A stretch of 64,000 nucleotides of DNA from a bacterium. GTDB lineage: Bacteria; Patescibacteriota; UBA1384; CAILIB01. Positions 17,073 through 62,227 of this stretch are shown piece after piece. Each line of letters begins with the position of its first letter. The first letter of the stretch is position 1. The position numbers and the translations under genes are program-made. The stretch covers positions 560,589-624,588 of the forward strand of contig JBAXRQ010000001.1 in NCBI GenBank assembly GCA_037131105.1. The letters are read 5' to 3'. The notes beneath the pieces were generated by a model, which saw only the letters and a list, made by a program, of their open reading frames with translations, ran no database searches and was not told the origin of the DNA.

Positions 17073-17085
17073 GGTTTGGGTTCGA

Positions 17086-17613
17086 TTAAAGCATATTGTC
17101 GATCACCGCCCAACGGGAGGGATGATCGGCGGGAATAAGTAGCATAACCTTGTCTCCCAAATGAAGATTAAAGAGTGACATGTAATAAGTCACTGATGCG
17201 GTCAGGATGCTATAGGTGTTGCCGTCCTCAGCATCCACCACATAGTGGTTACCCTCGGCTCGCAGTACACCTGGAATAGTCGAACGCTCGATGGGGCCAA
17301 GCTGCTTGTAGAAGAACTTGCCATCCGGAGTGATATAGAGCTTAAGCGGATCGCCTTCGACTAGCTTGCTTTTGGAGGCGTAGTTTGAGGAAACCTGGTA
17401 TCCCTTGCCGTTATAGTCAACCATCCTCTCGCCGTCAAAGATACCCTCGATCCCGTCGTCAGTACCAGACTGCTCCTGCAGCGCATAGGTAGGCTGGGCA
17501 GCATAACCAGCCGCTCCTACCCCTAATAGCTGCCGCAGATCACGTATATCCTGCTCGATCCGCTCTAACAGTCGCGCCGCCCGCTCAGCATTTCCATCGG
17601 TATTTGTTTCCAT
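17086..17613 (-). CDS. Hypothetical protein (175 aa) between the two ATPase genes
   Basis: Tightly packed within the operon (13-nt and 41-nt gaps); AAAGG SD. Confidence 0.5.
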   Translation of the reverse strand: METNTDGNAERAARLLERIEQDIRDLRQLLGVGAAGYAAQPTYALQEQSGTDDGIEGIFDGERMVDYNGKGYQVSSNYASKSKLVEGDPLKLYITPDGKFFYKQLGPIERSTIPGVLRAEGNHYVVDAEDGNTYSILTASVTYYMSLFNLHLGDKVMLLIPADHPSRWAVIDNML

Positions 17614-17654
17614 ACCTTTATTTAGTTTTTGATCTTAGGATCACTATATTCTTT

Positions 17655-20270
17655 TCAGACCTGGGGAGCAAGCTGAGGGGCAGGAGCTGGGGCCGGTTCA
17701 GGAGTGGCGGCGGGTACCGGTGCGAGTGGCGTTGAAGCCGTTGGAGCCACAGGAGCGACGGGTGCTGAAAGCCCCTTTGAGCGTAGGCGGATCTCGGACT
17801 CCACCAGCTCGCGGTCACGGCCGTACTTGAGGCGGGACAGCTGCTTGATCGCCTCCCCTACCTGGACGTTCTCGTTAGGGTCCGGCGGATAAGCAGCGGC
17901 ATTGAACGGCTTGGACGGACTTCCGTCGATAAGCATCTTGATGTAGTAGTTGTACTTTTCGGTATTGACCATGTCCTCTATCTCCAGTGGATCAAACTCC
18001 TTCTTAAAGAACTCAGCATCCGAGGCACCGATACGCCAGGTAAGCATAGTACCGACGTTACCGATGACGGCATTTCTCGTATCTTCATCAAGCTGTTCGA
18101 CAAACTGGTTGGTGATATTAAGCGACAGCTGGTACTTACGAGCTTCGGAGAGAATGGTGGCAAAAGTCTTGGACGTGAAGTTCTGGAACTCATCCACATA
18201 GAGATAAAATGGTACTCGTTCTGCCTCGGACTGGTTCTGACGTGAGAATGCGGCGATCTGGATCTTACCTGAGATGATCATACCGAGCAGCTGGGCGTTG
18301 ATATCTCCAAGCAGACCCTTCGGCAAGGTCACCAGGAGGATCTTCTTGCTGTCCATGGCCTCCCGAAAGTTGAAGGCGCTGTTCTGCTGGCCGATGATCG
18401 GCCGCATGATGTCATTGGTGGTGAACTGGGTGAGCTTGGAGGTGATGTACGGCACGATATTAGCAAGAGCCGCCTCTCCCCCAGCCTTTTCAGCCTCGTT
18501 CACCCAGAAGTCGATGACCACCTGGTTGCGGGTCTTGGAGAGTTTCAGCTTGCGGAACTCGGCGTCGGCCAGTACCTTTGGGATCTCCATAAGGGTGCTT
18601 CCCGAGTCAGGGTCGTCCATAACCAGCATCATGGCATTTCGCATGTACTGCTCAAACATAGGTCCTCCGGTGGCCTTCAGGTCATACAGCTTGTCGAAGA
18701 TGGAGATCATCTCGTTGATGACCATGGTCTTCTGCTCTGGATAGCGGGGGTCGAACTCAAGTAGGTTGAAGGCCATGGGGCGGGCGGTATCGGAAGGGTC
18801 AAACAGGATGACGTCCTCGGCCCGCTCCTTGGGAATGTGCTTGAGTATCCACTCGACGGCGTCACCGTTAGGATCCATGTAGCAGACCCCGTGCCCAGCC
18901 CGGATGTCCTGCAGTATCATGTTCTGGAACATAACCGTCTTACCTACACCAGTCTTTCCTATCATGTAGAAGTGGCGAGACCGGTCAGGATAGTTCATAT
19001 AGACCGGGATCTCAGTGCCACGGAAGGCGCTGTAGCCCAGCAATAGACCCGACTTCGGGATGTTGTTAGGAGGTGAAAGCCGGCGGGCACCCAGCCAGTG
19101 GATGTTTGGCGTGTCCAGTACCCGGTTTGGGAAATGGAAGATACTGGCCAGCTCCTCTGTGTTCAAGATAAAGCTAGGCTGGTCCTTGGAGAATAGACGC
19201 AGGATGTAGTCATTACGCAGATGCTGGCTACCGACTGCCGCGGTCTTAAACCCGTTCGACTCAGGCGCCTGATACTGAGAGAAAGCTGAGAGCATGGTCT
19301 GGACGTGGTTCTTAGCCTCAATCTCGGTAGCCGCCCAGGCCACGCAGCGGATCTGTACTTTGAAGCCTACCTTGCTGCCCTTCTCCACCATCAGCTTGGC
19401 TTGCTGCTCCTGCATGGCGGTAAGCCTGACATTAGCCTGGGTGGTGTTACCCGCCTCGTTATGAGTAGGTGCATCAGTCTTCTGGCTGGCCACTGCGGAC
19501 TGACCAACTTCCTTGGCAATATTTCCTACCTTCTGCATATTCGTGGTATGGAAGGATTTGCCCTGCTGCACGTTATGGAGCGCCTCCTCTATCTTATGCT
19601 GCCAGGACTGGTCGGTGGGCTGCACCAGGATCTGAATAGCGCCTCTCCCCTGCCCCATCTTGGATAGTGAGTTGGTCAAGCCATTCAGCGGATCATTCTC
19701 CAGGTTCTTATACGTTCTAATAGGAAATATTTGTTGCTTCATCAGCTGGATACCACCAGAGGCTGTAGCACCACCCTCCTTGATAAAGACGTCGTAATCC
19801 GTAGCCTCCTCGATCTGGGCAGCCGGGTATTGGCCATGGATCTGCCGCTCCACCTGATCCACCGTGTCAGAGGGACAGATAACATAAAAGAAAATCTCAC
19901 CATCATGGGCGGCTAGCTCAAAGGAAAAAGTCGGCTGGCCCTTCAGAAACGTATCAAACCAACTCGAGTCATAGAAATGATGCAGCGATGTGAATACCGC
20001 TTCCATGACGCCCATAATCTCCTTGGGATCACGCCGGTCGTCAGGATTGGCGAGCTGTTTAGGCATTGTCACCCGCAGAGCCCGTGTCTTCAAGGCGCGG
20101 TCTTGGTGCTGCTTGGTACGACGCATATAAATGTAGCGTGCCGCCACAGCCAAGCCGATAAGTAGAACAGCCAGTAGAAAGTCAGTCACTAAAAGTGCCG
20201 CCGTGTTGGTAGTACTGCTACCGCCGTCGGTGTAACTGGTGTCGTAGGTGTAGTCGGTGGTGTCTGCCAT
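17655..20270 (-). CDS. FtsK/HerA/VirD4-superfamily ATPase B (871 aa): N-terminal transmembrane helix, same novel domain, Walker A GKTGVGKT, DPNGD, Walker B YVDEFQNF, Pro/Ala-rich tail
   Basis: Clear paralog of ATPase A (shared blocks EELAS.FHFP, FATILSEARKY, AVIGNVGTM). Confidence 0.7.
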   Translation of the reverse strand: MADTTDYTYDTSYTDGGSSTTNTAALLVTDFLLAVLLIGLAVAARYIYMRRTKQHQDRALKTRALRVTMPKQLANPDDRRDPKEIMGVMEAVFTSLHHFYDSSWFDTFLKGQPTFSFELAAHDGEIFFYVICPSDTVDQVERQIHGQYPAAQIEEATDYDVFIKEGGATASGGIQLMKQQIFPIRTYKNLENDPLNGLTNSLSKMGQGRGAIQILVQPTDQSWQHKIEEALHNVQQGKSFHTTNMQKVGNIAKEVGQSAVASQKTDAPTHNEAGNTTQANVRLTAMQEQQAKLMVEKGSKVGFKVQIRCVAWAATEIEAKNHVQTMLSAFSQYQAPESNGFKTAAVGSQHLRNDYILRLFSKDQPSFILNTEELASIFHFPNRVLDTPNIHWLGARRLSPPNNIPKSGLLLGYSAFRGTEIPVYMNYPDRSRHFYMIGKTGVGKTVMFQNMILQDIRAGHGVCYMDPNGDAVEWILKHIPKERAEDVILFDPSDTARPMAFNLLEFDPRYPEQKTMVINEMISIFDKLYDLKATGGPMFEQYMRNAMMLVMDDPDSGSTLMEIPKVLADAEFRKLKLSKTRNQVVIDFWVNEAEKAGGEAALANIVPYITSKLTQFTTNDIMRPIIGQQNSAFNFREAMDSKKILLVTLPKGLLGDINAQLLGMIISGKIQIAAFSRQNQSEAERVPFYLYVDEFQNFTSKTFATILSEARKYQLSLNITNQFVEQLDEDTRNAVIGNVGTMLTWRIGASDAEFFKKEFDPLEIEDMVNTEKYNYYIKMLIDGSPSKPFNAAAYPPDPNENVQVGEAIKQLSRLKYGRDRELVESEIRLRSKGLSAPVAPVAPTASTPLAPVPAATPEPAPAPAPQLAPQV

Positions 20271-20287
20271 GCCCCTCGGTGGCTTTC

Positions 20288-20665
20288 TTAGGAAGTGGGA
20301 GTATCAGGTCCTGGATTCGCATTCTGGGACGCAAGCAACCGCAGGTTCGCCATGAACTGCGCCCTCTGCGAAAGGGGCATCTTCTCAAAATCCTCCGGAA
20401 GTTCGTGCAGGACAGAAACGACTCCAGGAGAACCTGCCCCGGTGTCACTGCCAGCTACGGCCTCAGGACCAGAATCAGGTGCGAGGGTTACCAGCGCAGT
20501 AGCACCCTCTACCGTACTATTAACCCCATCGACAGGACCCTCAACCTGCGCCGGAATCTGTTCTCCACCTGAAAGCACGGCGGCTTCGGGATTCTGCTGG
20601 TCAATCTGTTGAGTCTGGGCATCACGTAGCGACTCGGGAGTATTTGAACCTGGAAGCTCAGGCAT
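20288..20665 (-). CDS. Hypothetical small acidic protein (125 aa), probably disordered
   Basis: ORF fills the gap between the giant membrane protein and ATPase B; no SD. Confidence 0.35.
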   Translation of the reverse strand: MPELPGSNTPESLRDAQTQQIDQQNPEAAVLSGGEQIPAQVEGPVDGVNSTVEGATALVTLAPDSGPEAVAGSDTGAGSPGVVSVLHELPEDFEKMPLSQRAQFMANLRLLASQNANPGPDTPTS

Positions 20666-20721
20666 GGGATATCCGTTACTAGTTCATATTAAGCATACCA
20701 GCCCGGAGGTAAAGTCGAAAG

Positions 20722-23700
20722 CTATGAAGACCCACCCGGGAGCAGTACATCCTGAAGAGCCTCGTTATTGAGAATATTGGCCATGGCGGCTCCGATCAGG
20801 AGAATGCGGTTTTCCAGTGGGCTTCCGTCTGGGAGTTTTTTGTATCTTTCTCTTGTCGGGGCACTGAGTTGCCTTAGGCGAGTCAGCGCCTCCTTACGGC
20901 CGTCTCCTTCGGTCAGGTTAAGAAGCTCCATGACGCTTTCCCTATCCGCAAAGAAGTCCTCTAGGGCGGCATCATCCGCTGGCATCCCGTCCCCACCATT
21001 AATAAGCTCTTCTAGGTTCTTCTTTATACGATCAGAAAATGCCGGATATTTCTTTTCAGCTTCTGGAGGTGCGGCGCTTCTCAGCCTCAGCTGCAGCCTC
21101 CGCAAGCTATCCATAATAGAAGATGGTCGACTTTCTTCAGTAGAAGGAGTCACAGTCACGGCTGGCGGTTCTTCAGCTGGCGCTGCTTCGACTGTACCCG
21201 GATCAGCAACAGGCGGAGCCTCCAAATCACCCTCGTCCGCTACTGCTTCGATAGGGGCGCCTACGGGCTCCGCAGCAGGAGCCTCAGTCCCTGCACCAGC
21301 ATCCGGATCACCGGGAGCAGCTGGCGGCTCAGTAGTAACGGTCTCTGTACGACCCGCTACGGGATCACTATTATTGGCCTCCTTCTGCATGAACTGACCC
21401 TGTCTCCTTATGGTAAGGTCAAAGGAACGGACCGGCATGCAGCCTTCGGTACCATATGACCGGTCGTTGGCTTCGTTAAAGAGATATCTGCTCCAGTTCT
21501 TCACGAGTGGTACGAAATGCAGGGAAAGGGCCGGACGCCATGGACCCCGGGTATCAGTCGTAGCCGGATCCATAAGGGCCTTATAGGACTGCCTCAGAGC
21601 CTCTTGCCTCTCTAGGCTCGACAGCACCTCGTCATCAACCGCCATGAAGAGCTTCACATTTCCATTGAAGCGATCGTTGAAATCCTCAGGTGCGTTCTCA
21701 CCGAAACGCTTGGCACTACCCTGGTAGTCCCAGATCGCTTCCATTTTACCCCTCACCATGGCAGGTGACTGCTCAGGAGTAAAGGCAAGAAGAAATCTCT
21801 GCTCGTCTTTCGGCCAATCACTCAGGGTTTCAGCTGCTAACCTGAACGCGTCCCTGTGCAGCGGATTCCTAAGCTCGTCCCTGAAGTTCTTGGCCCCCGG
21901 ACCCGCGGCAGACCTGAGGCCATTCTTGTATGCCTCCCAGGAACCAAGCTCGGAGATACTGCCCACCCCATCATCCCCGGCACCGCCATCCTCGATGATC
22001 AGCTCAGTTTTTGTTGAGCGTAGCTTATTTTGAATGTAATACTCTTCAAGCTCGCTGACCTCGTATTTTATGCCGCCGTACCCCACGCTCTCCTCATTCC
22101 CCGCAAAGGGACCTTCGATGTTCAATGGCCGAAGGATTGCGGTGTCGGGGTCAGTCTCATAGTCAGCGTTATTGGGTCCGGACACCAAGTACACGTAATC
22201 AAACATAACAAGGTTTCCCTGTGCCGGCGTATCCATCTGGAAGACCGTTCCAGGCTTCTTCATGAGCTCCTGAAATTCGACCCGACGAGTTTCGCGCTCT
22301 GCAGGTGACAGTCCTGGCTCTGGCCGAACAGGAGCCTCTCTGCCTGCCGGAGGTCGTTCGGTAGGAGGTACTGGTGGTGCAGGTGGCACCGGAGCCTGAG
22401 GTCCCTCAGGCCCTCCGGGACGCGGAGGAGTGGGCGGTACTGGTGGAGCAGGTGGCACAGAAGCCGGCGGTGTCGCCGTTGCTGCCTCGGGCGTAGCAGG
22501 AGGAGCAGGCACAACAGACCCTTCTGGCTGCACTTGGCTGGCATTTCCTACCCCGCCTAGTGAAGTCAGCTCCGACTTGCCGCGAGCAGCGTTCAGGCGG
22601 GTCCTATTGGCCTCACCCATGGTGGCAATACCCTCGGACATGGCAGCGCCCGCCCCGAAGAAAGCCGTAAGCGGAACCGTCTGGGCAAGACTGTCCTTCA
22701 GAAAGGCACCGAAGATCTGCAGGCCACCGACCTCTGAATTATGGAAAAGCTGCAGGCCACGGCCAGTAGTTGCGTCATACATCGCCCCTCCCAGCCGTCT
22801 AGCGGCGTCCACCGCGTCTGTAGTTGCACCATTTCCGGGATATATGGCATGCAAGGTGTTCGGCGACACGTTTATCATGTCCTTCCTCTCAAGGACGAAC
22901 CTGGCCACTTTGTCGTGGGCCCCCTGTATCATCTTGGTCAGATGTCCCCTGGTTGAGTCGTGAGCCACGCTCATGCCGTCCAGCCGCACACCGTCGGCAC
23001 CGTACAGTGAGTTCTGCAGCCCATGCCAGTGATTGATGATGTTGTAGAGGCCACCGGTCAGGCTTCCAGCTGCGCCGCCGATCATTCCCGCCTTATTGAT
23101 CTGCTTGTCAGCCTCTTTCCTGGCCTTCATGAACTCACCGAACTTGGCCAGCTTCTCGTCGGCAGGTGGCTCACCAATATTCTTCAGACGGCTGTCGGTC
23201 GAGTCACGCATGCTGCGGGCAACAAAGCGCAGTAGGTCGGCCTTCTGCTCCTGAGTAGCCTCAGGTGCCGCTTCAGGATTCTCAGTAGTATGAATATAGC
23301 GCTGGGCATACTCAGTTGCCTTGCCGACATTCTCAGTCAGCTCCTGGAAGGCCGACCCTCCCAGAGTAGTGCCGTCTTCTTGCTCCTGGTAGAGCTTCTT
23401 CTCCTTGAAGTGGCGCATGATGCTGCGCCCGGCCATGGCACCGGCAAAGCTCAAGGCCGCCAGAGGTACAGCGGTTCCCATGGAAATGGTAGCCAGTCCT
23501 AACGCTGAAAGCCCCATGCCCACGCCGAGGCCGCCGGCAGTGGTCTTGGCGGTCCGCACTCCATCCTTTATGACCCGCTTCACATAACTTGGCTGTTTGA
23601 GGTTGACGTTTATTTCGGACTGAGGATCAATACCTCCCTGCGAGGAGAAGCTTTCGATATCCACACCGAACTGGTCGCAGGCCTCCTGCAGATTTTTGAA

Positions 23701-24240
23701 GCCTAGGCGGTGCACATACATCTCGCCGGCGATAGAGTCCCAGCCGTACTGCACCAGATCCCTAGCAATGAACAGCAGATCCTCCTCGTCAAGCTCCTCT
23801 CGGCGCTTCAGCTTTTCCTTGAAGCGAGTAAGAATAAGTCGACGGACAAGCTGGCGATGGGCGTCGGCGTCCAGCATTTCAGGCTCAGCCGGTACCTCGA
23901 TCGCCGGGGCAGGAGCTTCTTCAGCCGGAGGAGTTTCAACCAGAGGGGCAATGGCAGGCTCGGCCACAGGGTCAGCGGCAGGGACCTCAGGTTCAGGATC
24001 GGAAGCAGGGACTGGTTCCGGAGCGATAGGCTGCTCTTCACCGTTCAAGTAGAGCTCCTTCAATCGGGCCAGGTCATAGCGCTTATACTCACGCTCACGC
24101 TGGGCCAGCAGCCGTTTCTGCTGCTTGGGCTTATGGACGTTCTCCTCCATAAACTCATTCTTGTACTCGTTAACCCTGTCGGCGAGAGTGCCGGCATTGG
24201 TACGTGCGTTCTGCCATCCTTCCCCCCATGCGACAGCCAT
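20722..24240 (-). CDS. Giant membrane protein (1172 aa) with Gly/Ala-rich transmembrane hairpins, Pro-rich linkers and a C-terminal globular region; possible VirB6/TrbL-like channel or scaffold
   Basis: Hydrophobic G/A-rich segments (GGLGVGMGLSALGLATISMGTAVPLAALSFAGAMAG; GMIGGAAGSLTGGLY; VPLTAFFGAGAAMSEG); start 2 nt from the stop of the upstream ORF. Confidence 0.6.
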   Translation of the reverse strand: MAVAWGEGWQNARTNAGTLADRVNEYKNEFMEENVHKPKQQKRLLAQREREYKRYDLARLKELYLNGEEQPIAPEPVPASDPEPEVPAADPVAEPAIAPLVETPPAEEAPAPAIEVPAEPEMLDADAHRQLVRRLILTRFKEKLKRREELDEEDLLFIARDLVQYGWDSIAGEMYVHRLGFKNLQEACDQFGVDIESFSSQGGIDPQSEINVNLKQPSYVKRVIKDGVRTAKTTAGGLGVGMGLSALGLATISMGTAVPLAALSFAGAMAGRSIMRHFKEKKLYQEQEDGTTLGGSAFQELTENVGKATEYAQRYIHTTENPEAAPEATQEQKADLLRFVARSMRDSTDSRLKNIGEPPADEKLAKFGEFMKARKEADKQINKAGMIGGAAGSLTGGLYNIINHWHGLQNSLYGADGVRLDGMSVAHDSTRGHLTKMIQGAHDKVARFVLERKDMINVSPNTLHAIYPGNGATTDAVDAARRLGGAMYDATTGRGLQLFHNSEVGGLQIFGAFLKDSLAQTVPLTAFFGAGAAMSEGIATMGEANRTRLNAARGKSELTSLGGVGNASQVQPEGSVVPAPPATPEAATATPPASVPPAPPVPPTPPRPGGPEGPQAPVPPAPPVPPTERPPAGREAPVRPEPGLSPAERETRRVEFQELMKKPGTVFQMDTPAQGNLVMFDYVYLVSGPNNADYETDPDTAILRPLNIEGPFAGNEESVGYGGIKYEVSELEEYYIQNKLRSTKTELIIEDGGAGDDGVGSISELGSWEAYKNGLRSAAGPGAKNFRDELRNPLHRDAFRLAAETLSDWPKDEQRFLLAFTPEQSPAMVRGKMEAIWDYQGSAKRFGENAPEDFNDRFNGNVKLFMAVDDEVLSSLERQEALRQSYKALMDPATTDTRGPWRPALSLHFVPLVKNWSRYLFNEANDRSYGTEGCMPVRSFDLTIRRQGQFMQKEANNSDPVAGRTETVTTEPPAAPGDPDAGAGTEAPAAEPVGAPIEAVADEGDLEAPPVADPGTVEAAPAEEPPAVTVTPSTEESRPSSIMDSLRRLQLRLRSAAPPEAEKKYPAFSDRIKKNLEELINGGDGMPADDAALEDFFADRESVMELLNLTEGDGRKEALTRLRQLSAPTRERYKKLPDGSPLENRILLIGAAMANILNNEALQDVLLPGGSS

Positions 24241-31606: not shown

Positions 31607-32731
31607 TTAGGCGGATATATTCGAATCTGACTTTAGGTAGGCCTCGATGAAGCCACTCAGCTCGCCGTCCAGTACTCCCTGCACGTCGCTGGTCTCATAC
31701 TCGGTACGGTGGTCCTTGACCAACTGGTAGGGCTGCATGACGTAGGAACGGATCTGGTTACCCCAGCTGCCTTCCTTGAACTCACCCTTGAGGATAGCAG
31801 TTTCCTCGGCGTCCTGCAGTAAGCGAAGTCGCTCTAGCTTGGAGAGCAGGATCTTCATAGCGGTAGCCTTGTTCTGGTGCTGGCTGCGCTCATTCTGGAC
31901 ACTTACCACCAGGCCGCTGGGAAGGTGGGTCAGGCGTACGGCCGAGTCGGTGGTATTTACCCCCTGTCCTCCTTTGCCGCTCGAGCGAAAGACATCGATG
32001 CGCAGGTCCTTCTCGTCAATGTTTGCAGCCGCGGAGGCGTCCATCTCGGGAATGACCTCGACTAGGGCAAAGCTGGTCTGACGCAAACCCTTAGCATTAA
32101 AAGGCGACATACGCACCAGACGGTGTACTCCGGCCTCGGACTTCAGTAGGCCGAAGGCATTGCTGCCCTGGATCTCAAGTACCGCCCGCTTGAGGCCCGC
32201 CTCCTCTCCCCTAGTCCGCTCGACGATGTCTACCTTCCAATTGTGCCGATCAACTGAGAGTGTACGCTCCTCTGGCTGCTCGGTGCTCCCCTGCTCCACA
32301 TACCGCAAGAACATGCGCTCCAACATCTCGGCGAAATCCTGGGCATCTACGCCTCCGGTGCCGGCGTGAATGGTCAGGATGGCCCCTCTAGCGTCATGAA
32401 CACCTGAAAGCAAGGCCTTCTGCTCAAGCACTGTAAGCTCTTTATCTAGACTAATGAGATCATCCTCAGATAATTCAACCATGCCAAGAAATCCTTCCAG
32501 ATCGTCCCACTGGGAAAGAGTTGCCTGCAGCTCATTAAGCTCGGACATGGTCTTCACTGCCTTCTCCTGGTCCTCCCAGAGGTCGCTGGCCTGGCTAGCC
32601 GCCTCGAGTTCAGGTAAGCGTATTCGCTTTGCCTCAATGCCAAGCTTAGGCCCCAGGGCCTGCAGGCGTTCACCCAGGTTGTCTAGTTCTGTGGCCATTG
32701 ATGAGATTAGTGTCTCCAGAGATACTACCAA
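31607..32731 (-). CDS. prfB: Peptide chain release factor 2 (SPF and GGQ motifs), encoded without the programmed +1 frameshift
   Basis: SPF tripeptide (RMSPFNAKG) and GGQ (SGKGGQGVNTTDSAVR); single uninterrupted ORF. Confidence 0.85.
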   Translation of the reverse strand: MVVSLETLISSMATELDNLGERLQALGPKLGIEAKRIRLPELEAASQASDLWEDQEKAVKTMSELNELQATLSQWDDLEGFLGMVELSEDDLISLDKELTVLEQKALLSGVHDARGAILTIHAGTGGVDAQDFAEMLERMFLRYVEQGSTEQPEERTLSVDRHNWKVDIVERTRGEEAGLKRAVLEIQGSNAFGLLKSEAGVHRLVRMSPFNAKGLRQTSFALVEVIPEMDASAAANIDEKDLRIDVFRSSGKGGQGVNTTDSAVRLTHLPSGLVVSVQNERSQHQNKATAMKILLSKLERLRLLQDAEETAILKGEFKEGSWGNQIRSYVMQPYQLVKDHRTEYETSDVQGVLDGELSGFIEAYLKSDSNISA

Positions 32732-32786: not shown

Positions 32787-34673
32787 TTACCGGATGTCCA
32801 GGTTCTCCAGGCTCTTCTTCAGGGCCTTCTTCAGCTTCAGGTAGCGAGCAAGTCCTGCACCTAGTCCAGAAGTGGTTCCTGCTAGTAGCAGGCCAGCTTC
32901 AGGGCCGGTCTTAGGCAACTGAGGCGGAACCGTGACAACTACGGGAGACGGACTTGGGGTCGGGCTATGCGTAGGAGTCGGGGTAGCGGTAGGAACTGGG
33001 GTCGGAGTAGGAGTCGGACTTGGGGTAGGCGTAGGTGTTGGCGTAGGCTTCGGGGTAGCTGTTGGCGTGGGGGTAGGGGTAGCCGTAGGCTTGGGAGTAG
33101 GAGTCGGGGTGGGCTTTGGCGTAGGTGTAGGCGTGGCCGTAGGGGTAGGCTTCGGAGTCGGGGTTGGGGTCGGCTTCGGGGTAGGAGTCGGAGTAGCCGT
33201 AGGTGTTGGGGCAGGCGTAGGAGTAGGAATGACACAGGCAGGCAGGATAGCCGTAGCAGTGTCGCTCTTCTCTCCGGTTCCGTTGGCCTTGATGAAGGCG
33301 GTGTTCACCGCAGTGGTCTGAGCCACGAGACAACGAACCTGAACCTTCAGGGTAATCGTCTTACCATGACCGGGGTCAAAGGTGGTCAGGATAATACCTC
33401 CCTTGAAGAAGGCGTCCTGTACCGGCTGAGACTGAACCGCGTTGTCGATGGTCAGACTGTTAGGCACATAGGTGGCACCGGTAGGCAGCACGTCACGCAG
33501 GGTAGGATTCACAGCGGTAGTGTTGCCAGTGTTACCGACCAAGATACGGTAGGTCAGGGTCTGGTTAGGGTTAATCAGTCCGATAGAGTCTACGTAGGCA
33601 CCGGTAGCGGGGTTCTGAACGTCCTTTACGACGGTCAGACCGCGGGTGCAGGAAATCAAGGTGGTAGCATCGTCAGAGGCCTTTACAGCGCCCTGGTATA
33701 CGATCTGAGCCTTGTCGACAACGGTTACGTCGGCACCACAGTTCGAAGGCGCAATGGCCTCAAACTGGATACGCTGGTATCCGCCGGTATGAGGCTCCAG
33801 GCTGGAGAACACATAGCCGCCGTTCACGATGGCATTACCCGAGATAGGGGTACCGTTCGTGTTGTTCTGGTTGGTCAAGAGAGCGTTGCCAGCATAGGTG
33901 AACCCAGCAGGCAGCACGTTCTTCAACGAGACATTGTTGGCAGTAGTATTACCGGTGTTCAGGATGGTCATACGATAGGCCACCTTGTCACCAGGAGCGA
34001 TGATAGCAGTAGCGGCATCGTACCAGATATCATAGCCGAGACTCATGTCACGGACCTCATTCTTCACGCTGAATGAGGTTACCGGAGTACCGTACCGGGT
34101 AACGGTATAGGATACCGGATTGGTGACAGCGCTTACCCCGTCAAACGAAGAGGTAGCGGTATTGGTATAGGTAGTCTGGCCAACCGAGAACTGGTCGTCA
34201 GAAGCAAGGCGAGCCTTGAACTGAAGATACAGGGCAGCGTTTGGCTGAGGAGCCATGTCAACGAAGGCCCAGCCAAGGTCATGACCGTTGTTCTTAATGC
34301 TCATGTAGCTATCCGAAAGCGGATAGTCATGGTCCTTGTTATCGCTGCCCTTTACCCGTACGAACGAGCTGTTAGGGGTATAGGTCAGACGAGAGTCAAG
34401 GTGCTCTACGATCTTCGGGTGGGCGCCGTTAGCGTCACCGGTGTTCTCAAGGAGTACGCGGAACGCCAGCGAGTCACCAGGAGTAGCCTGGGCACTGGAA
34501 GCATACTCGGACTGCCCGCCGGACAGCTGTACGGCAAGCCTGGTGTTGATCTGGGGACCAGAGGTCGCAATGACCGACTGCATACCCATGAAGCCAAGGG
34601 CCAGGGCGGAAGCAGCCACCACAAAGCGGGTGCCGAATCGTCCCATGGATGTAAGGAGTGAACTTTGTGTCAT
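32787..34673 (-). CDS. Cell-wall-anchored surface protein: signal peptide, DUF11-type repeat domains, Pro/Thr-rich stalk, LPKTG sortase motif plus hydrophobic segment plus basic tail
   Basis: C-terminal [31 protein letters not shown] is a canonical LPXTG sorting signal; ~100-aa (PTPT/PKPT)n linker. Confidence 0.7.
32932..33235 (-). repeat. Degenerate tandem DNA repeats (GGNGTNGGN-type units) encoding the Pro/Thr-rich stalk of the LPXTG protein
   Basis: Visible periodic gtaggngtnggngt units on the plus strand; explains the Gly/Val shadow ORFs on the opposite strand. Confidence 0.6.
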
Positions 34674-34769
34674 AGAGACTCTGGTTAGATAGTGGTGAGT
34701 ATAGGTCCGCCAGGGATATTTCGGTGTAAGTTGGCTTACATAACCGATAATCCGCAGCAGTAATAGTGT

Positions 34770-34798
34770 GTTTTACCATACTAGAGACTTTTTGTCAA
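34770..34798 (-). promoter_or_regulatory. Putative promoter TTGACA-17-TAAAAC for the LPXTG surface protein gene
   Basis: Consensus -35, weak -10, about 95 nt upstream of the ATG. Confidence 0.35.
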
Positions 34799-34822
34799 TA
34801 GGTAAATAGGCTCTGGGATACG

Positions 34823-34856
34823 AAAAACGACCCCGAGCATTGCTGCTGCGGGGTCG
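34823..34856 (-). terminator. Intrinsic terminator after the 34894-35970 gene (cgaccccg ... cggggtcg 8-9 bp stem, 13-nt loop, U5)
   Basis: Hairpin plus T-run on the minus strand, 40 nt after the stop. Confidence 0.65.
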
Positions 34857-34893
34857 TTTCGTTAGACAGTCGGCGCGGTGGTGGTCGCGCTGA

Positions 34894-35970
34894 CTAGTTG
34901 AATGGAACCTGGACAGGGTTGTCGCCAGGACCAGTTACCGGACCGCCCGGATCCCCCGGTATGGGGTAATTCGGTGGCTCGTCAGGTCCAGTGGGTTGTC
35001 CGGGATTGCCCGGTGTAGGTGGCTTACGGTGATGCCCACCCTGGTGCTGGTGCTGATTCTGAGTCTGCGACTGGCGGATGTCAATCCTGCTTGGCAGGCT
35101 GATGTATCCGCTCTGGGAGCCGGCTGTGACCGTGAAGTCATGGCCATGTGCGCGGCCGGGAGTTCCCAGCTGCACGGGTGGCGCCGGTGTCTCGCGTTCG
35201 ATCACCGTGGTGCCACCGCCGACGATGAGGAAGGTTTGACGCTCCTGCACGACGGTCTTCGGCTGATGCCAGCGCTCGACAATCTTCTCCTTGTACTTGA
35301 TCTTGGTCTTATACTTGACCTTGGTCTTGTACTTGGTGACGGTCCTTGTCTTGCACTTGCACTCGCAGGGAGGCGACGGTGTACCTTTGGAAGGCTGGCC
35401 GTTAGACTCGTTGCCGCAGTATCCGTGCCGCGACATATCGTCCCAGACATGCGTATAGTCCCACGACTTATTCCCATCTTTCCAGGTAACGACCATCGTG
35501 TAACGGTCGTAGTCCTTGACGATGTAGGGGTTAGCCGAAGTACCGTAGCCCGAGACCCACTTGCCGCCGCGAACGAAGGAGTAATTGAACTGGTCGCCCT
35601 TGTTAAGAGTGAACCACTTCTCTCCTGGACCGGGTGCGATGCCCCGCTTGGGGCCTGGAAAATCCAGGCACTCCATGCTGGTATCGACTTTGCCCGGAAC
35701 GGACAGCAGGGCGGTGTTGCGCTGACCTTCGGGCACGTTGGCTGCCCAAGCGCCGTACTTGACCGTCCACTTACGCTCGGGCATGCTGTCGACCTCGCGG
35801 ACGACGTCGTTGCTGTACCCGAGGTGGCGGTTGTAGTCTCGCTTCCACTGTGCCTCGGCCATAAGCCTTGGCATTTCGGACATCGGTGGTTGCCGAAGGT
35901 CGTTCGTCTGGGCGATTACCGGCATTGCTGCCAGCAGAAGCCCAAAAGCCATCAATATGATACGTTTCAT
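34894..35970 (-). CDS. Secreted hypothetical protein (signal peptide MKRIILMAFGLLLAAMPVIAQ; Lys-rich KYKTKVKYKTKIKYKEKI repeat; Pro/Gly-rich C-terminus)
   Basis: Start moved to the ATG preceded by AGGAGAAAAAG; 20 nt after the stop of the upstream gene. Confidence 0.55.
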   Translation of the reverse strand: MKRIILMAFGLLLAAMPVIAQTNDLRQPPMSEMPRLMAEAQWKRDYNRHLGYSNDVVREVDSMPERKWTVKYGAWAANVPEGQRNTALLSVPGKVDTSMECLDFPGPKRGIAPGPGEKWFTLNKGDQFNYSFVRGGKWVSGYGTSANPYIVKDYDRYTMVVTWKDGNKSWDYTHVWDDMSRHGYCGNESNGQPSKGTPSPPCECKCKTRTVTKYKTKVKYKTKIKYKEKIVERWHQPKTVVQERQTFLIVGGGTTVIERETPAPPVQLGTPGRAHGHDFTVTAGSQSGYISLPSRIDIRQSQTQNQHQHQGGHHRKPPTPGNPGQPTGPDEPPNYPIPGDPGGPVTGPGDNPVQVPFN

Positions 35971-35992
35971 CTTTTTCTCCTCATTCCTCTTC

Positions 35993-37042
35993 CTACTGCT
36001 TGCCCAGGAAAGAATCCTGGTTGAAGGCAATGACACCTTCGCCGTACTTCAGATCCCGAAGGGTGAAGAACAGCTCGGTTGTCACCTTCTTTCCGGTGCC
36101 CACTTCCGTAAGAACTTGCCGCTCCACCTGAAAGGTGGTTCCGGCCGGTCCGACGAAGCGGTCATGAAAGTCGACTTTTCGGCCGTCAGAATACTTGTAG
36201 TATCCGACAACTTCATAATCAACTTCGCTCAATGCCCGGAAATCGATGGTGCCGTTAACACCCGTAAGCGGGTATCCTCCACTGAACCGGTTAGCCGGTG
36301 GCGTGGTGGTTACATGCTCGACGGGCTTTTGCGGTGCCAGGGGAGCCACATATACAGGGGCGGCTGCGATTGACGGTGCCGGCGGTCCGGCAATTCCGTT
36401 CAACCGATAGTACTCCTGCCACATCCACGCGATGATGTCGTCCGCGGTGCCATCGGCAACCGGACAGTCCTCACCGATGAATGTGATCGTGGTATCGCTC
36501 CAACCCGGCGGGTGCTTTGCACTGCCACCGAATAAGCCTGCGACGGCATTGCCGGCGACCTGGCCCAGACTTCCTTCCGAAGTTATCCGCAACACCCGGC
36601 TGCTTCCGCAAGCTGGAGTAACGGTTATCTTCTCCTTAAGGTAGTCGGGCTTGTTTTTGTCCTGCCAACTGGGCTGCGCACCGTCCCATCCACGACGAAC
36701 GTGAGCTGTAGTGCGATCCCTATGCTGCATGTCAGGGGCATAGCCGAAAGGCGTGCCTATGACTTCATCGGAAAAGCTCATACCTTTCGGCAGGTTGGTC
36801 GGCACGACCAGGAACGTATTTTCGTTCATCGGTGCGTGCACTATCGACAGCTTGGTACCGACCATTCGAAAAAGGTCAGTGTTCACGCCGGCGGCAGTTT
36901 GGACGGAAGACGAGGTCGGCTTGGTGCCGCTGATGCCAAATCCACCCAATGCCCCAGGCACTCCAGCGTGAGCCGGGAGAGCGTGGGACGACATAACAAG
37001 TAACAGTACAGCCGCAATGGCTGTCTTAAATACGCATTTCAT
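35993..37042 (-). CDS. Secreted hypothetical protein (signal peptide, AHA cleavage site)
   Basis: SD AAGGAGA 8 nt upstream; N-terminal MKCVFKTAIAAVLLLVMSSHALPAHA; first gene of a 2-gene operon. Confidence 0.55.
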   Translation of the reverse strand: MKCVFKTAIAAVLLLVMSSHALPAHAGVPGALGGFGISGTKPTSSSVQTAAGVNTDLFRMVGTKLSIVHAPMNENTFLVVPTNLPKGMSFSDEVIGTPFGYAPDMQHRDRTTAHVRRGWDGAQPSWQDKNKPDYLKEKITVTPACGSSRVLRITSEGSLGQVAGNAVAGLFGGSAKHPPGWSDTTITFIGEDCPVADGTADDIIAWMWQEYYRLNGIAGPPAPSIAAAPVYVAPLAPQKPVEHVTTTPPANRFSGGYPLTGVNGTIDFRALSEVDYEVVGYYKYSDGRKVDFHDRFVGPAGTTFQVERQVLTEVGTGKKVTTELFFTLRDLKYGEGVIAFNQDSFLGKQ

Positions 37043-37156
37043 TCTAATTCTCCTTGGAATCTCATATTGTCAAAGGCGCCCCACCACAGGCATTCCTCTT
37101 AAAACTGTGGGACCTGACTACCGCTGTGCGGCACTGGCATTCGCCAGGAATGTCTC

Positions 37157-37185
37157 TTTATAGCCTAATTCTCTTATTTTGTCAA
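37157..37185 (-). promoter_or_regulatory. Sigma70 promoter TTGACA-17-TATAAA for the secreted-protein operon (37042-34894)
   Basis: Consensus hexamers with 17 nt spacing on the minus strand, ~110 nt upstream of the ATG. Confidence 0.6.
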
Positions 37186-37220
37186 TACCATAGCCTAATA
37201 TTTGTGGGTTACTTCACAGC

Positions 37221-37446
37221 AAAAAACCGGCCTTTCGGTCGGTTTTCCCTCACTCTCTTTTGTTGGGCTGATCTAGCCAGGAAAAGGGCGCGCGCGCAGA
37301 GACAGTCGGTTTATGTGGCATGTAGCCTAAGATCCCGTCTGTGTTGAGTTCTGCGAAGCAATCATCCGCAATTCCCAGCCAGGTCAGCCAAGCAAAATGT
37401 AAAAGTAAAAACAGCCCTTCTACCGTGGTCTAGCGTTGTCCTGTTC
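37221..37446 (-). ncRNA. Candidate ~225-nt small RNA (or structured 3' region of the epimerase transcript), delimited by a consensus promoter and a strong intrinsic terminator; no ORF longer than 16 codons
   Basis: TTGACA-17-TATAGT promoter at 37453-37481 (minus). Terminator aaaaccgacc-gaaa-ggccggtttttt at 37221-37250 (minus). Only 12- and 16-codon ORFs between them. Confidence 0.35.
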
Positions 37447-37452: not shown

Positions 37453-37481
37453 ACTATACAACACGATTATTGGCTTGTCAA
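37453..37481 (-). promoter_or_regulatory. Sigma70 promoter TTGACA-17-TATAGT inside the 3' region downstream of the epimerase gene
   Basis: Perfect -35, near-perfect -10, 17 nt spacing. Confidence 0.55.
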
Positions 37482-37525: not shown

Positions 37526-38467
37526 TCAGGACCGATACTGTCGATACCATTCAACAGTCTGTCGTACTCCCTCGGTAAAGTCGACCTGAGGGCTCCAATC
37601 CAGGTTAGAAGCCGCTTTCTCCACTGAAAGGCTCACTGCCATCAACTCACCAGGTCGAAGCGGCTCATATCGTGCCTCTAGGACATACCCTGTTGCCCCG
37701 CTAAGGGTGCGAAATACCTCGTTGGTAGAAGTGCCACGGCCGGTTCCAATATTAAAGGCCTCCCCGTCTCCCTCTCTCAGGGCAGCCGTATTAGCAGCTG
37801 CTACGTCACTGACGAATATATAGTCCCTGAGGGGAGTACCGTCACCAAACACTGTAACCGGCTGACTGTGCAGCATGCGCTCGGTAAAAATAGCGCAAAC
37901 GCCTACCTCACCATGCGGGTCTTGACGAGGACCATAGACATTGCCATATCGCAAAACAGTAGCCCTAAGCCCATATATGTCAGCATACAACCAAACATAA
38001 CGCTCTGCTGTGTATTTAGAAAGACCGTAAGGTGAAGTAGGTGAGGCCGGAGTGTCCTCAAGGGTGGGAAGAGTCTCGGCGACGCCGTACATAGTGCCAC
38101 CGCTCGCCGAATAGATGACCTTGGACTGAGGCGACTCAGTACGAACTGCTTCCAGGATATTTACCGTACCCAGCACATTCAGTGTCAGGTCATCGAGAGG
38201 TCGCATGGAGGATATAGCTACTGAGACTTGGGCGGCATGATGGCTGACCACATCGGGCCGAACCTGAGTCATCACCGACTTGAGAAAGTCTAGGTCACGT
38301 ATGTCTCCTTCTCGAACTGTCAGGCCGACTCGTCCCTCGTTTCCCAGGTTCTCCCGCTTTCCGGTAGAAAAGTCATCGATTACCGTCACCTCATGACCAG
38401 CTTTCAGATAAGCATCCACCACATGTGAACCAATAAATCCAGCTCCTCCAGTAACTACGATCTTCAT
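37526..38467 (-). CDS. NAD-dependent epimerase/dehydratase (UDP-sugar 4-epimerase/decarboxylase family); start set at MKIVVTGGAGFIGSH
   Basis: Rossmann GGAGFIGS and YSASKY-type catalytic motif (YGLSKY). Confidence 0.8.
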   Translation of the reverse strand: MKIVVTGGAGFIGSHVVDAYLKAGHEVTVIDDFSTGKRENLGNEGRVGLTVREGDIRDLDFLKSVMTQVRPDVVSHHAAQVSVAISSMRPLDDLTLNVLGTVNILEAVRTESPQSKVIYSASGGTMYGVAETLPTLEDTPASPTSPYGLSKYTAERYVWLYADIYGLRATVLRYGNVYGPRQDPHGEVGVCAIFTERMLHSQPVTVFGDGTPLRDYIFVSDVAAANTAALREGDGEAFNIGTGRGTSTNEVFRTLSGATGYVLEARYEPLRPGELMAVSLSVEKAASNLDWSPQVDFTEGVRQTVEWYRQYRS

Positions 38468-38477
38468 ATAGTGTAAG

Positions 38478-39872
38478 TTAGAGTGGGTAGACCTGGCCGA
38501 CACCCTCACTGTCGCGCACGGCATAGCCGGCTTTTTCAATCTCAAGGCGAAGCTGGTCGGCTACCTCCCACTCTCTAGCTGTCCGAGCCACATCCCGCTG
38601 TTGGGCTAACTCCCTGACGTTCTCTGGTACAGTCATGCTGGGCGCTTCATACGTACCACCCAGGCCCAGGGACAGAATCGGCTCAAACGACTCAACCACC
38701 ATCCTCTTCCCAGCAGGTTCAAGGTCGGACTGAAATGCTTCCCAGATCACCGCCATAAGCTGTGAGGTGTTAAGGTCGTCGGCAAGGGCGGCACTCCCAC
38801 GCTCAATCAGACTCTCCACATCTGGGCCGGTAGCGCCTTTTTCAGGAAGATCTGCCGTTAGCCGTCTCAGACGTTCTAAACTCTTCTGGGCAGCCTCAAT
38901 AGCCTCCCAGGTGAAGTTAAGCTTGCTTCGATAGCCGGCCGAATAAGTGAAGATACGAAAAGCCAACGGGTCTATCTTTCTTTCTACCAGATCAGCAACG
39001 GTGTAAAAGTTTCCCAGTGACTTACTCATCTTGCCACCGTCAACTAGGAGAAAGTCAGTATGTAGCCATTCCTTGGCCAATGGCTTTCCAGTAAGCGACT
39101 CGCTCTGAGCAATCTCATTGACGTGGTGGACCGGTATATGGTCGGTGCCGCCGCAATGAATGTCGATCTCATCCCCCAGTTGGTCGCGGATAATGGCCGA
39201 GCATTCGATATGCCAACCTGGAAATCCGGTGCCCCAAGGACTCTCCCACTCCATATCGCGTTTTCCGGGCGGCCTTGAGAACTTCCACAGAGCAAAGTCA
39301 GTCACTCTTCGTTTTCCCTCTGCCATCTCGACTCGGGCTCCTGCTTGCAAGCCTTCTAGATCAAGCCTGGCAAGTCGGCCATAATCAGAGACCTTTGAGC
39401 TATCAAAGTAGACACCGTCCTCAATAGTATAGGTGAGCCCTTTCTCTTCCAGCCCCTTGATAAAGGCGACCTGCTGAGTAATGGTGTCAGTGGCTCTGAT
39501 CAGGCGAGTGGGACGCTCTATATGTAGCTGGTCAAGGTCGGCTAGAAAAATTCCCTCATAGCGTTTGGCCACGTCCCAGGCAGTAAGTCCTTCGCGACGT
39601 GCCCCGACCTCCATCTTGTCCTCCCCTTCGTCCTCATCTGAAGTAAGATGCCCCACGTCAGTGATGTTCATCACCCGATCAACCTCGTAGCCAAAAAAGC
39701 GCAAGGTCTTTACCAATACGTCCTCATAGATATAGGTCCGGTAATTTCCAACGTGTTGGTTATTGTACACCGTCGGTCCACAGGTGTAGATGGCGACCCG
39801 ATCTCCAGTAAGTGGTACGAGCGGCTCCACCGAGCGACTCATCGTGTTATAGAGAGAGATAGGCCGCGCCAT
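38478..39872 (-). CDS. cysS: Cysteinyl-tRNA synthetase; HIGH motif reads HVGN, KMSKS intact
   Basis: CGPTVYN..HVGN..., zinc-ligand positions, KMSKSLGN; 464 aa. Confidence 0.9.
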   Translation of the reverse strand: MARPISLYNTMSRSVEPLVPLTGDRVAIYTCGPTVYNNQHVGNYRTYIYEDVLVKTLRFFGYEVDRVMNITDVGHLTSDEDEGEDKMEVGARREGLTAWDVAKRYEGIFLADLDQLHIERPTRLIRATDTITQQVAFIKGLEEKGLTYTIEDGVYFDSSKVSDYGRLARLDLEGLQAGARVEMAEGKRRVTDFALWKFSRPPGKRDMEWESPWGTGFPGWHIECSAIIRDQLGDEIDIHCGGTDHIPVHHVNEIAQSESLTGKPLAKEWLHTDFLLVDGGKMSKSLGNFYTVADLVERKIDPLAFRIFTYSAGYRSKLNFTWEAIEAAQKSLERLRRLTADLPEKGATGPDVESLIERGSAALADDLNTSQLMAVIWEAFQSDLEPAGKRMVVESFEPILSLGLGGTYEAPSMTVPENVRELAQQRDVARTAREWEVADQLRLEIEKAGYAVRDSEGVGQVYPL

Positions 39873-53262: not shown

Positions 53263-54477
53263 TTACTTGATGAAGCCGTCGTCGTCAAAGGCTCCAGAGA
53301 AATCAACTACGCTCTTGCGAGAGCCAGGATTGTGAGGAATACTGAGCAGCAGCTTGCGCTGGACGCCGAAAGCAAACCCTATAGCCTCAACTTTGGTAGA
53401 GCCCGTCTCGATGATCATGTCCGCATGCCGGGCGTCAAGGTTATTGCCCGTTCCGAAATTAGGATCCAACGGAGCCTTAAGGATGAGTACCTGATCTCCT
53501 ACAAGATAGGTCGGCGACTCTGCCACGCTGGCCATAGACTTGGCAATTGCTAGCGCCTTTGCGTTTGACGGTATCTGGACCCGCTGGTGCGAGTCGTCGA
53601 ACTCCAGCTTGTACCAGGTGCCATTAAGAAGTGAACTACTCCACATCAGCTTCAGGGAGGCCTTGCCATCAGAGCGATTCCCAATTGCTGACTCCATCTC
53701 AACCAACATGACCTTGTTAACAGTGTCGGGATAGACGTTATAGTACGGTATCTGAAGTATCAGGAAAGGATTGGAAGCGCTGGGTGCCGCCGGATCGGAT
53801 TGGATGATACCGGAGTTATAAGGCTTCGCATCCCAGACGGCATTATCACTATTGTAAGGCACCTCGCTATCGCTCAAGGTAAACTTCGGGTACGTGTTCA
53901 CACTGTGACCAGGAGTGTCATCCATATGAAGCCGCACAAAGCTGCGCACGGTCATATCATACCCCTGCGAAGAGCATCCCGTAGTAGGTATGGCCACAGG
54001 ATAGCTAGTGTTGCTTTGTGACGAGTTATAACCTGCCATATTATACACATACTTCGACTCGCCGGGCTTGCAGTCTTTGGTCCCGCTATATAGCCGGCGC
54101 AGGGTATACGGAAACGTCGTGCTATCCTGACTTATCGCGGTCCTGGTAGCAGGCACAGGATGCGGAATCGAAGGATCATACGGAGGACCGTACCTTATCC
54201 AAGGATTATGGGTATCATCAGGGGTGCCTATGCCATAAACGGGACCATACAGAGGGTTGGTAGCCAACAGGTCCGTGTTATTTAGAACTAGCGTAGCCTC
54301 CTGAATAGCCGACTGAGCCATATCGGTGGCCACCTTGGCGCTATCAAACTGAGCAACACTTCGAACCGTACCAGCCGAACGCCGAATAGCAAGCAGGGTA
54401 ACTGTTGAAACCACCATCATTACCAATAGGACGGTAAGCAGGGCGGAACCGGGTCTTCGGAAGGATGATATGGTCAT
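53263..54477 (-). CDS. Type IV pilus minor component (PilX-like; N-terminal hydrophobic segment without canonical G-F prepilin site)
   Basis: GSALLTVLLVMMVVSTV N-terminus; last gene of a 4-gene overlapping pseudopilin operon. Confidence 0.5.
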   Translation of the reverse strand: MTISSFRRPGSALLTVLLVMMVVSTVTLLAIRRSAGTVRSVAQFDSAKVATDMAQSAIQEATLVLNNTDLLATNPLYGPVYGIGTPDDTHNPWIRYGPPYDPSIPHPVPATRTAISQDSTTFPYTLRRLYSGTKDCKPGESKYVYNMAGYNSSQSNTSYPVAIPTTGCSSQGYDMTVRSFVRLHMDDTPGHSVNTYPKFTLSDSEVPYNSDNAVWDAKPYNSGIIQSDPAAPSASNPFLILQIPYYNVYPDTVNKVMLVEMESAIGNRSDGKASLKLMWSSSLLNGTWYKLEFDDSHQRVQIPSNAKALAIAKSMASVAESPTYLVGDQVLILKAPLDPNFGTGNNLDARHADMIIETGSTKVEAIGFAFGVQRKLLLSIPHNPGSRKSVVDFSGAFDDDGFIK

Positions 54478-57851: not shown

Positions 57852-57874
57852 ACCTCGTAAGTATACGCTATACT
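57845..57874 (+). promoter_or_regulatory. Promoter TTGTCA-18-TATACT placing the TSS on the ATG at 57881 (leaderless ABC transporter mRNA)
   Basis: -10 ends 7 nt before the ATG; no SD. Confidence 0.45.
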
Positions 57875-57880
57875 CGACTC

Positions 57881-58612: not shown

Positions 58613-58616
58613 CCCT

Positions 58617-60257: not shown

Positions 60258-60271
60258 AACGCTCACAAACT

Positions 60272-62221: not shown

Positions 62222-62227
62222 AGGGGG

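Follow-up and report, generated by a model that had tools for sequence, protein, structure and literature searches.

A 64,000-nucleotide (nt) stretch of a patescibacterial contig (JBAXRQ010000001.1, positions 560,589 to 624,588; hereafter the window) was analyzed with a focus on three consecutive minus-strand genes, designated A, B, and C, which lie between prfB (31607-32731) and a gene for a NAD-dependent epimerase (37526-38545, minus strand). The three open reading frames (ORFs) and their two neighbors were confirmed at the coordinates given in a preliminary description of this DNA, which had been made from the letters alone. C (32787-34673) codes for a DUF11/CLIPPER protein of 628 amino acids (aa) ending in an LPXTG-type sorting signal, A (35993-37042) and B (34894-35970) code for secreted proteins of 349 and 358 aa, respectively, and a rod-like structured RNA is located directly upstream of A. 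This cassette was found at the same site in all relatives examined. We consider it probable, with fair confidence, that C is a CLIPPER protein anchored to the wall in the manner of sortase substrates and that A and B are secreted partners inherited together with it; adhesion would be the likeliest function of the set.

Ribosome-binding sites (AAGGAG/GAGGAG) are present ahead of the starts chosen for A and B. The ATG at 35970 was preferred over the GTG at 36036 as the start of B, which matches the public gene call. For A, NCBI gives a 333-aa version that would drop the signal peptide, and this shorter call is less likely because an AAGGAG site precedes the longer start. Coding potential was evaluated with a codon-usage log-odds score, in bits per codon, for which 17 confident genes of the window served as the training set. 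The annotated frames scored 0.17 for A and 0.20 for B, the best of the six frames and close to the value obtained for the epimerase gene (0.16), indicating that A and B are real genes of native composition. The long ORF antisense to B scored 0.0, and the plus-strand antisense ORFs at 34996-36024 and 32967-34076 were rejected as genes on account of their low coding scores. Both proteins start with a classical signal peptide, which is the sole hydrophobic segment in each: MKCVFKTAIAAVLLLVMSSHALPAHA, cleaved before G, in A (residues 1-26, ending ..AHA) and MKRIILMAFGLLLAAMPVIA, cleaved before Q, in B (ending ..VIA). These ORFs, ribosome-binding sites, and signal peptides bear out the earlier view of A and B as signal-peptide proteins of unassigned function that form a separate two-gene unit.

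The locus is organized as two adjacent transcription units, A-B and C. A and B are separated by 22 nt, and the 220-nt spacer between B and C contains a hairpin with a T-run, followed by a promoter-like site. The preliminary description had placed a consensus promoter ahead of A-B at 37157-37185 (minus strand). A site consisting of TTGACA, a 17-nt spacer, and TATAAA does exist there and matches 11 of the 12 consensus positions, but its -10 hexamer ends in A instead of the conserved final T, hence the promoter scanner did not list it. Two exact copies of a 10-nt direct repeat, ATTAGGCTAT, are placed 30 nt apart on the minus strand, one just upstream of the -35 hexamer (37190-37199) and the other overlapping the -10 hexamer (37160-37169); they are the only exact copies within the window, and the repeat is not conserved in the related loci L003 or L009. 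An 8-mer, TTAGGCTA, was seen also in the apical hairpin of the structured RNA upstream. The hairpin and T-run after B (about 34821-34855, minus strand) were read by eye, since the 13-nt loop exceeds the 8-nt limit of the terminator scanner and the structure went unreported by it. Gene C, as had been claimed, comes with initiation and termination signals of its own. In its promoter-like site (34798-34770), TTGACA and TAAAAC are separated by 17 nt, the last three of which are TGG (a TGn extended -10), a layout found ahead of C in L002 and L003 too, and the scanner reported an intrinsic terminator downstream of the gene (32758-32737).

Domains, stalk, and sorting signal of C

C was recognized by the Pfam model for DUF11 (PF01345) with 70.3 bits (cut-off, 24.6; E, 2.3e-19) over three stretches, the best of which is at residues 367-464, and by TIGR01451 with 89.4 bits (cut-off, 24; E, 1.1e-25). 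DUF11 has been renamed CLIPPER, and crystallography has revealed a CnaA-type immunoglobulin (Ig)-like domain with a Lys-Asn isopeptide bond; the bond and its catalytic Asp are not universal among CLIPPER domains, which are typical of the stalks of fibrillar adhesins, and most of the known CLIPPER proteins are such stalks (PMC12617251). An AlphaFold2 model of C built with 19 homologues yielded three beta-sandwich domains across residues 40-480, mostly with a predicted local distance difference test (pLDDT) score of >90, a disordered region at residues ~481-600, and a terminal helix at residues 604-621. When the model was compared with the PDB by Foldseek, the best matches were Ig-like adhesin stalk domains (E down to 7e-16), including those of the wall-anchored Gram-positive adhesins PrgB (8beg) and antigen I/II C123 (3qe5 and 7l0o) and of 3lso.

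From its N terminus, C consists of a signal peptide (34566-34673, residues 1-36), three CLIPPER domains, a Pro/Thr-rich stalk, and the sorting signal, all on the minus strand. The signal peptide was modeled as disordered; by inspection, its n-region is basic, its hydrophobic core spans 15 residues, and cleavage would fall after ..SVIA, before TSG. The Lys-Asp-Asn triad is conserved in all three domains family-wide, and our alignment revealed that C of the window retains only that of domain 3. In domain 1 (34089-34556, residues ~40-195), the Lys is replaced with Leu while Asp93 and Asn185 are kept; in domain 2 (33645-34088, residues ~196-343), all three residues are exchanged (Lys to Asn, Asp to Asn, and Asn to Asp); and in domain 3 (33234-33644, residues ~344-480), the triad Lys350-Asp394-Asn457 is intact, with the spacing of a solved CLIPPER domain (Lys715, Asp748, and Asn806; PMC12617251). 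An internal isopeptide bond is thus predicted to be possible only in domain 3, the one nearest the cell.

The stalk (32934-33233) is a Pro/Thr(/Lys) region of ~99 residues, predicted to be disordered, in which Tandem Repeats Finder detected repeats with periods ranging from 12 to 54 nt. No other member of the family has one as long: the stalks of the nine other anchored proteins are of 0-34 residues, indicating that this region has expanded in the genome of the window. The sorting signal together with the stop codon occupies 32787-32918 and comprises LPKTG (residues 586-590; 32904-32918), 19 weakly hydrophobic residues, and a basic tail, also 19 residues long, with 6 Lys and 2 Arg. Ten family proteins share this plan: [LI]PxTG is followed by a hydrophobic segment, 19 residues long except in two of them (18-20), and by a tail of 19 residues (20 in one) with the conserved pattern R[YF]..LK.KL.K....[LI]D[IV]. 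The hydrophobic segment of C has a mean Kyte-Doolittle value of about 0.9, calculated by hand, and no 19-residue stretch there reaches 1.4, as is expected for a transient stop-transfer signal. Taken together, the view of C as a DUF11 protein with an LPXTG-type signal and a long Pro/Thr stalk was upheld.

C is thus a known kind of surface protein, combining CLIPPER domains with a sortase-type signal, that exhibits some unusual features. It follows the same logic as PrgB and antigen I/II C123, namely a signal peptide, an Ig-like stalk, a Pro-rich wall-spanning region, LPXTG, a hydrophobic segment, and a basic tail, but it is only 11-13% identical to them and its tail is two to three times longer than usual. 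Compared with the CLIPPER proteins of fibrillar-adhesin stalks (Costa et al. 2025, PMC12617251; PDB 9IFR), C has a like Lys-Asp-Asn spacing in domain 3 and scores far above the thresholds of PF01345 and TIGR01451; however, it possesses just three domains, two of which lack the triad, and no recognizable adhesive head, carries a long Pro/Thr stalk and a conserved 19-residue tail, and belongs to an uncultured lineage with small genomes.

The cassette and its genes in relatives

About 19 true homologues of C were retrieved from 5.8 billion proteins. The gene order, which was the same around all those with a readable contig, was ...topA, recR, cysS, the structured RNA, the A-like and B-like genes (329-480 and 280-397 aa, respectively), C, sometimes a further gene designated D, prfB, ybaB, pth, and rplA. 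The order from cysS to prfB was kept in all eight relatives having the upstream region on their contig (L002, L003, L007, L009, L010, L012, L014, and L015); L016 and L013 are cut contigs, and the portions present show the same order. A and B overlap by 4 nt or are situated a few nt apart in most loci. Across these relatives, the cysteinyl-tRNA synthetases (CysRS) encoded by cysS are 52-65% identical and the C proteins 28-67%. Departures from the common order were few. The epimerase gene of the window, inserted between cysS and the RNA, is specific to this genome and was absent from the relatives with an upstream region; L014 carries a DNA-alkylation-repair gene between B and C; and in L012 (3652-5766) the A-like and B-like proteins are joined in one 704-aa ORF, the N-terminal part of which matches A of L010 and the C terminus of which contains C-x-N and a Pro-rich tail. 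Scanning a collection of genome contigs with the family alignment detected only two distant DUF11 proteins, and of two scans of metagenome contigs, one yielded nothing and the other a single locus (L012).

The preliminary description had called this region an island. Our data do not support that term: codon usage is native, searches of phage and plasmid sequences revealed no relatives of the cassette, with only the low-complexity Pro/Thr repeat being matched, and scans of the window detected no integrase or tRNA at the cassette. With no mobility genes and the same site in every relative examined, a horizontally acquired genomic island was rejected. Nor was any patchiness seen in the presence and absence of the cassette among the relatives examined, a point the earlier description had proposed to check. 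Because the cassette occupies the same slot in every relative even though CysRS is only 52-65% identical among them, it is ancestral and vertically inherited.

Two CLIPPER genes, C and D, are present in most relatives. There, C has an extra N-terminal domain of ~190 aa and three CLIPPER domains, lacks an anchor, and ends in ..RRPxLP; D combines this N-terminal domain with a single CLIPPER domain, a short Pro/Thr stalk, and an LPXTG anchor. D genes were located in L007 (11921-13102), L009 (12031-13305), L010 (12089-13282), L012 (8018-9271), L013 (2401-3600), and L014 (8095-9294). In the window, L002, L003, L016, and P0012, D is absent and the one CLIPPER gene is anchored; in the window, L016, and P0012, the C protein is also devoid of the N-terminal domain. 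C of the window looks like a fusion of C and D that has been stripped of the distal domain. Its closest relative is the unanchored C of L010 (51% identity), and the anchored forms are not mutual nearest relatives, suggesting that fusion or fission of C and D has probably happened more than once.

A and B behaved very differently from C in database searches. A word-seeded search of the 5.8 billion proteins returned only self-matches for the two proteins, a full phmmer search of 1.84 billion representatives with A again gave the self-match only, and neither protein had a sequence match in Pfam, NCBIfam, PHROGs, or PDB. Nevertheless, the proteins encoded at the corresponding positions in relatives share a common architecture. 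A-like proteins have a signal peptide (..AQ or similar), an N-terminal part of ~200 aa, a Pro-rich/charged linker, and a C-terminal part of ~90 aa that often starts with CPF. B-like proteins have a signal peptide, a globular part ending in C-x-N, a short beta-type repeat, and a Pro/Gly-rich tail; C-x-N occurs once and at the same place in 10 of 10 of them, and all carry the P/G-rich tail. B of the window conforms to this plan, and the two features noted for it earlier, a K-rich repeat and a Pro/Gly-rich C terminus, are both present, the former as a 6-aa repeat (KYKTKV...; KYKTKVKYKTKIKYKEKI) at 35290-35335. As a candidate identity for B of the window, a collagen-like protein was rejected, there being no continuous G-X-Y repeat. 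In the B-like protein of L016 (1521-2708), the tail is a long, true G-X-Y collagen-like run (GAPGTPGAPGPPGQTGSPG...).

Sequence similarity among these proteins was traceable in part. A profile built from four positional B orthologues found B of the window at an E value of 3e-4. Pairwise phmmer matches linked the A-like proteins of L007 and L014 (5e-10), L003 and L007 (8e-5), and L012 and L010 (2e-5), and the B-like proteins of L007 and L014 (1e-16) and of L015 and L016 (5e-9). Chains of weak similarity join six of the nine separate A-like proteins, with the fused L012 protein joining weakly, and the B-like proteins are also joined. Mean global identity was 23-24% for A-like and B-like proteins versus ~20% for shuffled controls, 42% for C, and 57% for CysRS. 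Thus, A and B are fast-diverging positional orthologues, diverged almost beyond recognition and the fastest in the vertically inherited set, and part of their ORFan status reflects the thin sampling of the lineage.

The structured RNA upstream of A

Directly upstream of A-B lies a rod-like structured RNA of ~135 nt (37261-37395, minus strand). It is preceded by a promoter-like site (37453-37481; TTGACA, a 17-nt spacer, and TATAGT, 11 of 12 matches) and followed by a terminator-like hairpin with a T-run reported by the terminator scanner (37225-37240), both on the minus strand. All nine loci covering the region have the RNA immediately ahead of gene A, and the TTGACA...TAtAgT pair could be aligned in eight of them, the TTGACA of L014 being positioned further downstream. 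RNAalifold predicted 43 base pairs from the nine-locus alignment, 17 of which show compensatory changes. As for the consistency of pairing, 94.6% of cells were paired, versus 84% in shuffled alignments (none of 500 reached the observed value) and about 40% when partners were slid. A covariance model scored 134 bits in the window and detected exactly one copy per locus. No Rfam family matched the RNA at gathering thresholds or at E values up to 10. The RNA stays beside A-B even where the epimerase gene parts it from cysS, and it is either the leader of the A-B operon or an independent small RNA.

Anchoring, partners, and role of the cassette

In the mechanism we favor, C would be exported by Sec and fold into three tandem Ig-like CLIPPER domains, and its sorting signal, composed of LPKTG, the weak 19-mer, and the basic tail, would hold the protein in the membrane until C is cleaved between Thr and Gly and joined covalently to peptidoglycan by a sortase whose gene would lie elsewhere in the genome. 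The Pro/Thr stalk would carry the domains through and beyond the wall, away from the cell, and the retained triad would sit in the stalk-adjacent domain 3, where mechanical load would pass. A and B would be cotranslated from their bicistronic operon and secreted as soluble proteins devoid of a membrane anchor, and they would act at the surface with C, perhaps providing variable partners for binding or docking. That A and B have remained adjacent to C over deep divergence makes such joint action probable, and adhesion to another cell would be the most likely role of the ensemble. Their rate of divergence fits proteins that meet a changing partner, be it a host surface, a phage, or an antagonist. 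Sortase cleavage and wall attachment of C are what its C-terminal sequence suggests, and the machinery for a peptidoglycan wall is represented by FtsW/RodA and MraW in the window and LytR_C in the left flank.

Several observations weigh against this interpretation. The window and its 10-kb left flank, ~74 kb of the 949-kb contig, contain no sortase that could be detected with a TLxTC motif, with phmmer using Staphylococcus aureus SrtA on six-frame ORFs, or by Pfam scans of nearly all sizeable ORFs of the window and of that flank. The signal of C is borderline when compared with those of Gram-positive LPXTG adhesins, scoring 18.0 bits against a cut-off of 20 with Gram_pos_anchor (PF00746) and giving no match to TIGR01167, and a tail fixed in length and pattern is odd for a segment to be discarded after cleavage. 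C of the window is missing the ~190-aa N-terminal domain that most family members bear distally, leaving no obvious ligand-binding module. As for the partners, position, not sequence (E, >1), connects A of the window with the other A-like proteins, the single-sequence AlphaFold2 model of A was unusable (pLDDT, 35), and conserved adjacency is the one line of evidence for a functional link of A and B to C.

Among the alternatives, one holds that C, or C and D in relatives, is a structural component of the envelope, such as a surface layer, a sheath, or a spacer, and that A and B are further envelope proteins. The fixation of the cassette in a housekeeping neighborhood across deep divergence, the strong promoter-like site ahead of C, and the absence of a distal binding domain from C of the window are in line with such a function, and in archaea, surface layers and cell aggregates are known to involve DUF11 proteins (PMC12617251). 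However, most of the known CLIPPER proteins serve as fibrillar-adhesin stalks (PMC12617251), the structures closest to C in the Foldseek search are adhesin stalks as well, and the very fast divergence of A and B fits a changing partner better than a purely structural job. We therefore regard a structural role as a serious contender that is nonetheless unlikely to be the explanation; it is compatible with most of the data, and the envelope and adhesin readings are not mutually exclusive.

Equally doubtful in our estimation is that A and B are unconnected with C, being independent secreted proteins in a stable neighborhood. The two units have separate promoters and terminators, the DNA-alkylation-repair gene of L014 falls right between them, and neither sequence nor structure gives a sign that A or B interacts with C; these points speak for independence. 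Yet A, B, and C were adjacent in every locus with an upstream region, even where CysRS is only about 55% identical, and other insertions, such as the epimerase gene of the window, fall outside the A-B pair.

It is less likely still that C remains uncut, with the hydrophobic segment and the amphipathic basic tail serving as a permanent membrane anchor and the Pro/Thr stalk spanning the wall. The lack of a sortase in the ~74 kb searched and the fixed 19-residue tail, whose pattern is conserved in ten proteins as though it had a function of its own, point in this direction; moreover, AlphaFold2 predicted the tail of C to be helical, and C-terminal helices anchor PamC, PamD, and PamR of the Pam pilus of the Candidate Phyla Radiation (CPR) (bioRxiv 10.64898/2026.03.03.709456). 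On the other hand, 10 of 10 proteins strictly preserve [LI]PxTG, at an unchanging distance from the C terminus, the signal of the L009 paralogue passes the LPXTG-anchor model TIGR01167 (21.1 bits; cut-off, 15.9), the hydrophobic stretch is weak and rich in Gly, Ala, and Thr, and sortases are common in the CPR, being encoded by more than half of its genomes (PMC6744442). Were the genome to have no sortase, the fixed C-terminal signal of 5 + 19 + 19 residues would indicate another route of anchoring.

A sortase-polymerized pilus of the Spa/Fim type, of which C would be a subunit, is suggested by the annotation of the close homologues P0002 and P0003 as "isopeptide-forming domain-containing fimbrial protein" and by the LPXTG signal and Ig-like isopeptide-type domains of C, but it was rejected as highly improbable, for no class C or other sortase was found within 10 kb of the locus in any genome examined, K87, the sole lysine of the HPK type, is not shared across the family alignment and no pilin-motif lysine is present, and the long protein has no LPXTG in most relatives.

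The locus was further compared with the Pam pili (PamA/PamB; bioRxiv 10.64898/2026.03.03.709456), which, like the present locus, involve CPR-type surface genes evolving too fast for sequence searches and secreted Ig-fold proteins with signal peptides. They also share a rough layout with the A-like proteins, consisting of an N-terminal domain, a linker, and a C-terminal domain of ~90 aa. Pam pili are characterized by two-domain pilins with a donor strand. The Pam operon, however, adjoins ATP-synthase genes and encodes PapD-like membrane-anchored chaperones, whereas the cassette is placed between cysS and prfB and includes no chaperone-like gene. For this neighborhood, the missing chaperone, and the lack of a C-terminal membrane helix in A and B, assignment of the locus to the Pam pili was rejected.

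A more ambitious version of the idea that A and B work with C would be that the RNA, the A-B pair, and the CLIPPER protein or proteins constitute one clade-specific host-recognition module. In it, C, or C plus D, would be a mechanically stable, wall-anchored stalk that displays A and B or cooperates with them; A and B would set partner specificity, and the RNA, retained beside the operon through deep divergence, would govern expression. We regard this as speculative and improbable; if true, ultra-small bacteria would possess a surface system of a novel type, associated with an RNA family that is likewise new. A conserved cassette that combines a CLIPPER protein with two hyper-divergent secreted partners and a structured RNA has not been described, and the elements are linked circumstantially.

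Other genes of the window were recorded in passing. Two VirD4/TraG-like coupling ATPases (975 and 871 aa) are encoded beside a 1,172-aa protein and small ORFs without a family (14145-24240, minus strand), a set reminiscent of the genes for conjugation-type type IV secretion known from Patescibacteria. The region at 53263-63976 holds a cluster for type IV pili, which encodes a prepilin peptidase, PilC (T2SSF), a portion of a PilB ATPase, and three or four pilin-like proteins bearing methylation motifs at the N terminus. A second epimerase is encoded with a sugar nucleotidyltransferase at 649-2720. Ribosomal protein L1 (29565-30494, minus strand; 309 aa) has an acidic, low-complexity N-terminal extension of ~90 residues and is annotated as hypothetical by NCBI.

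Beyond type IV pili and Pam pili, it is largely unknown how ultra-small, host-dependent bacteria recognize their partners. A, B, and C, which the preliminary description had put forward as candidate host-attachment factors of an epibiont, are plausible surface factors of an organism with a small genome, whose size and gene content suggest a member of the CPR, and adhesion to a host cell would be plausible for a bacterium whose ~0.95-Mb genome carries type IV pili and VirD4-like ATPases. The locus offers a compact and conserved candidate in this respect, with a CLIPPER stalk, two fast-diverging partners, and a structured RNA. The divergence of A and B is close to the fastest that proteins can sustain, as would be expected of specificity determinants or antigens, and their case indicates that apparent ORFans of sparsely sampled lineages can be assigned to families by synteny.

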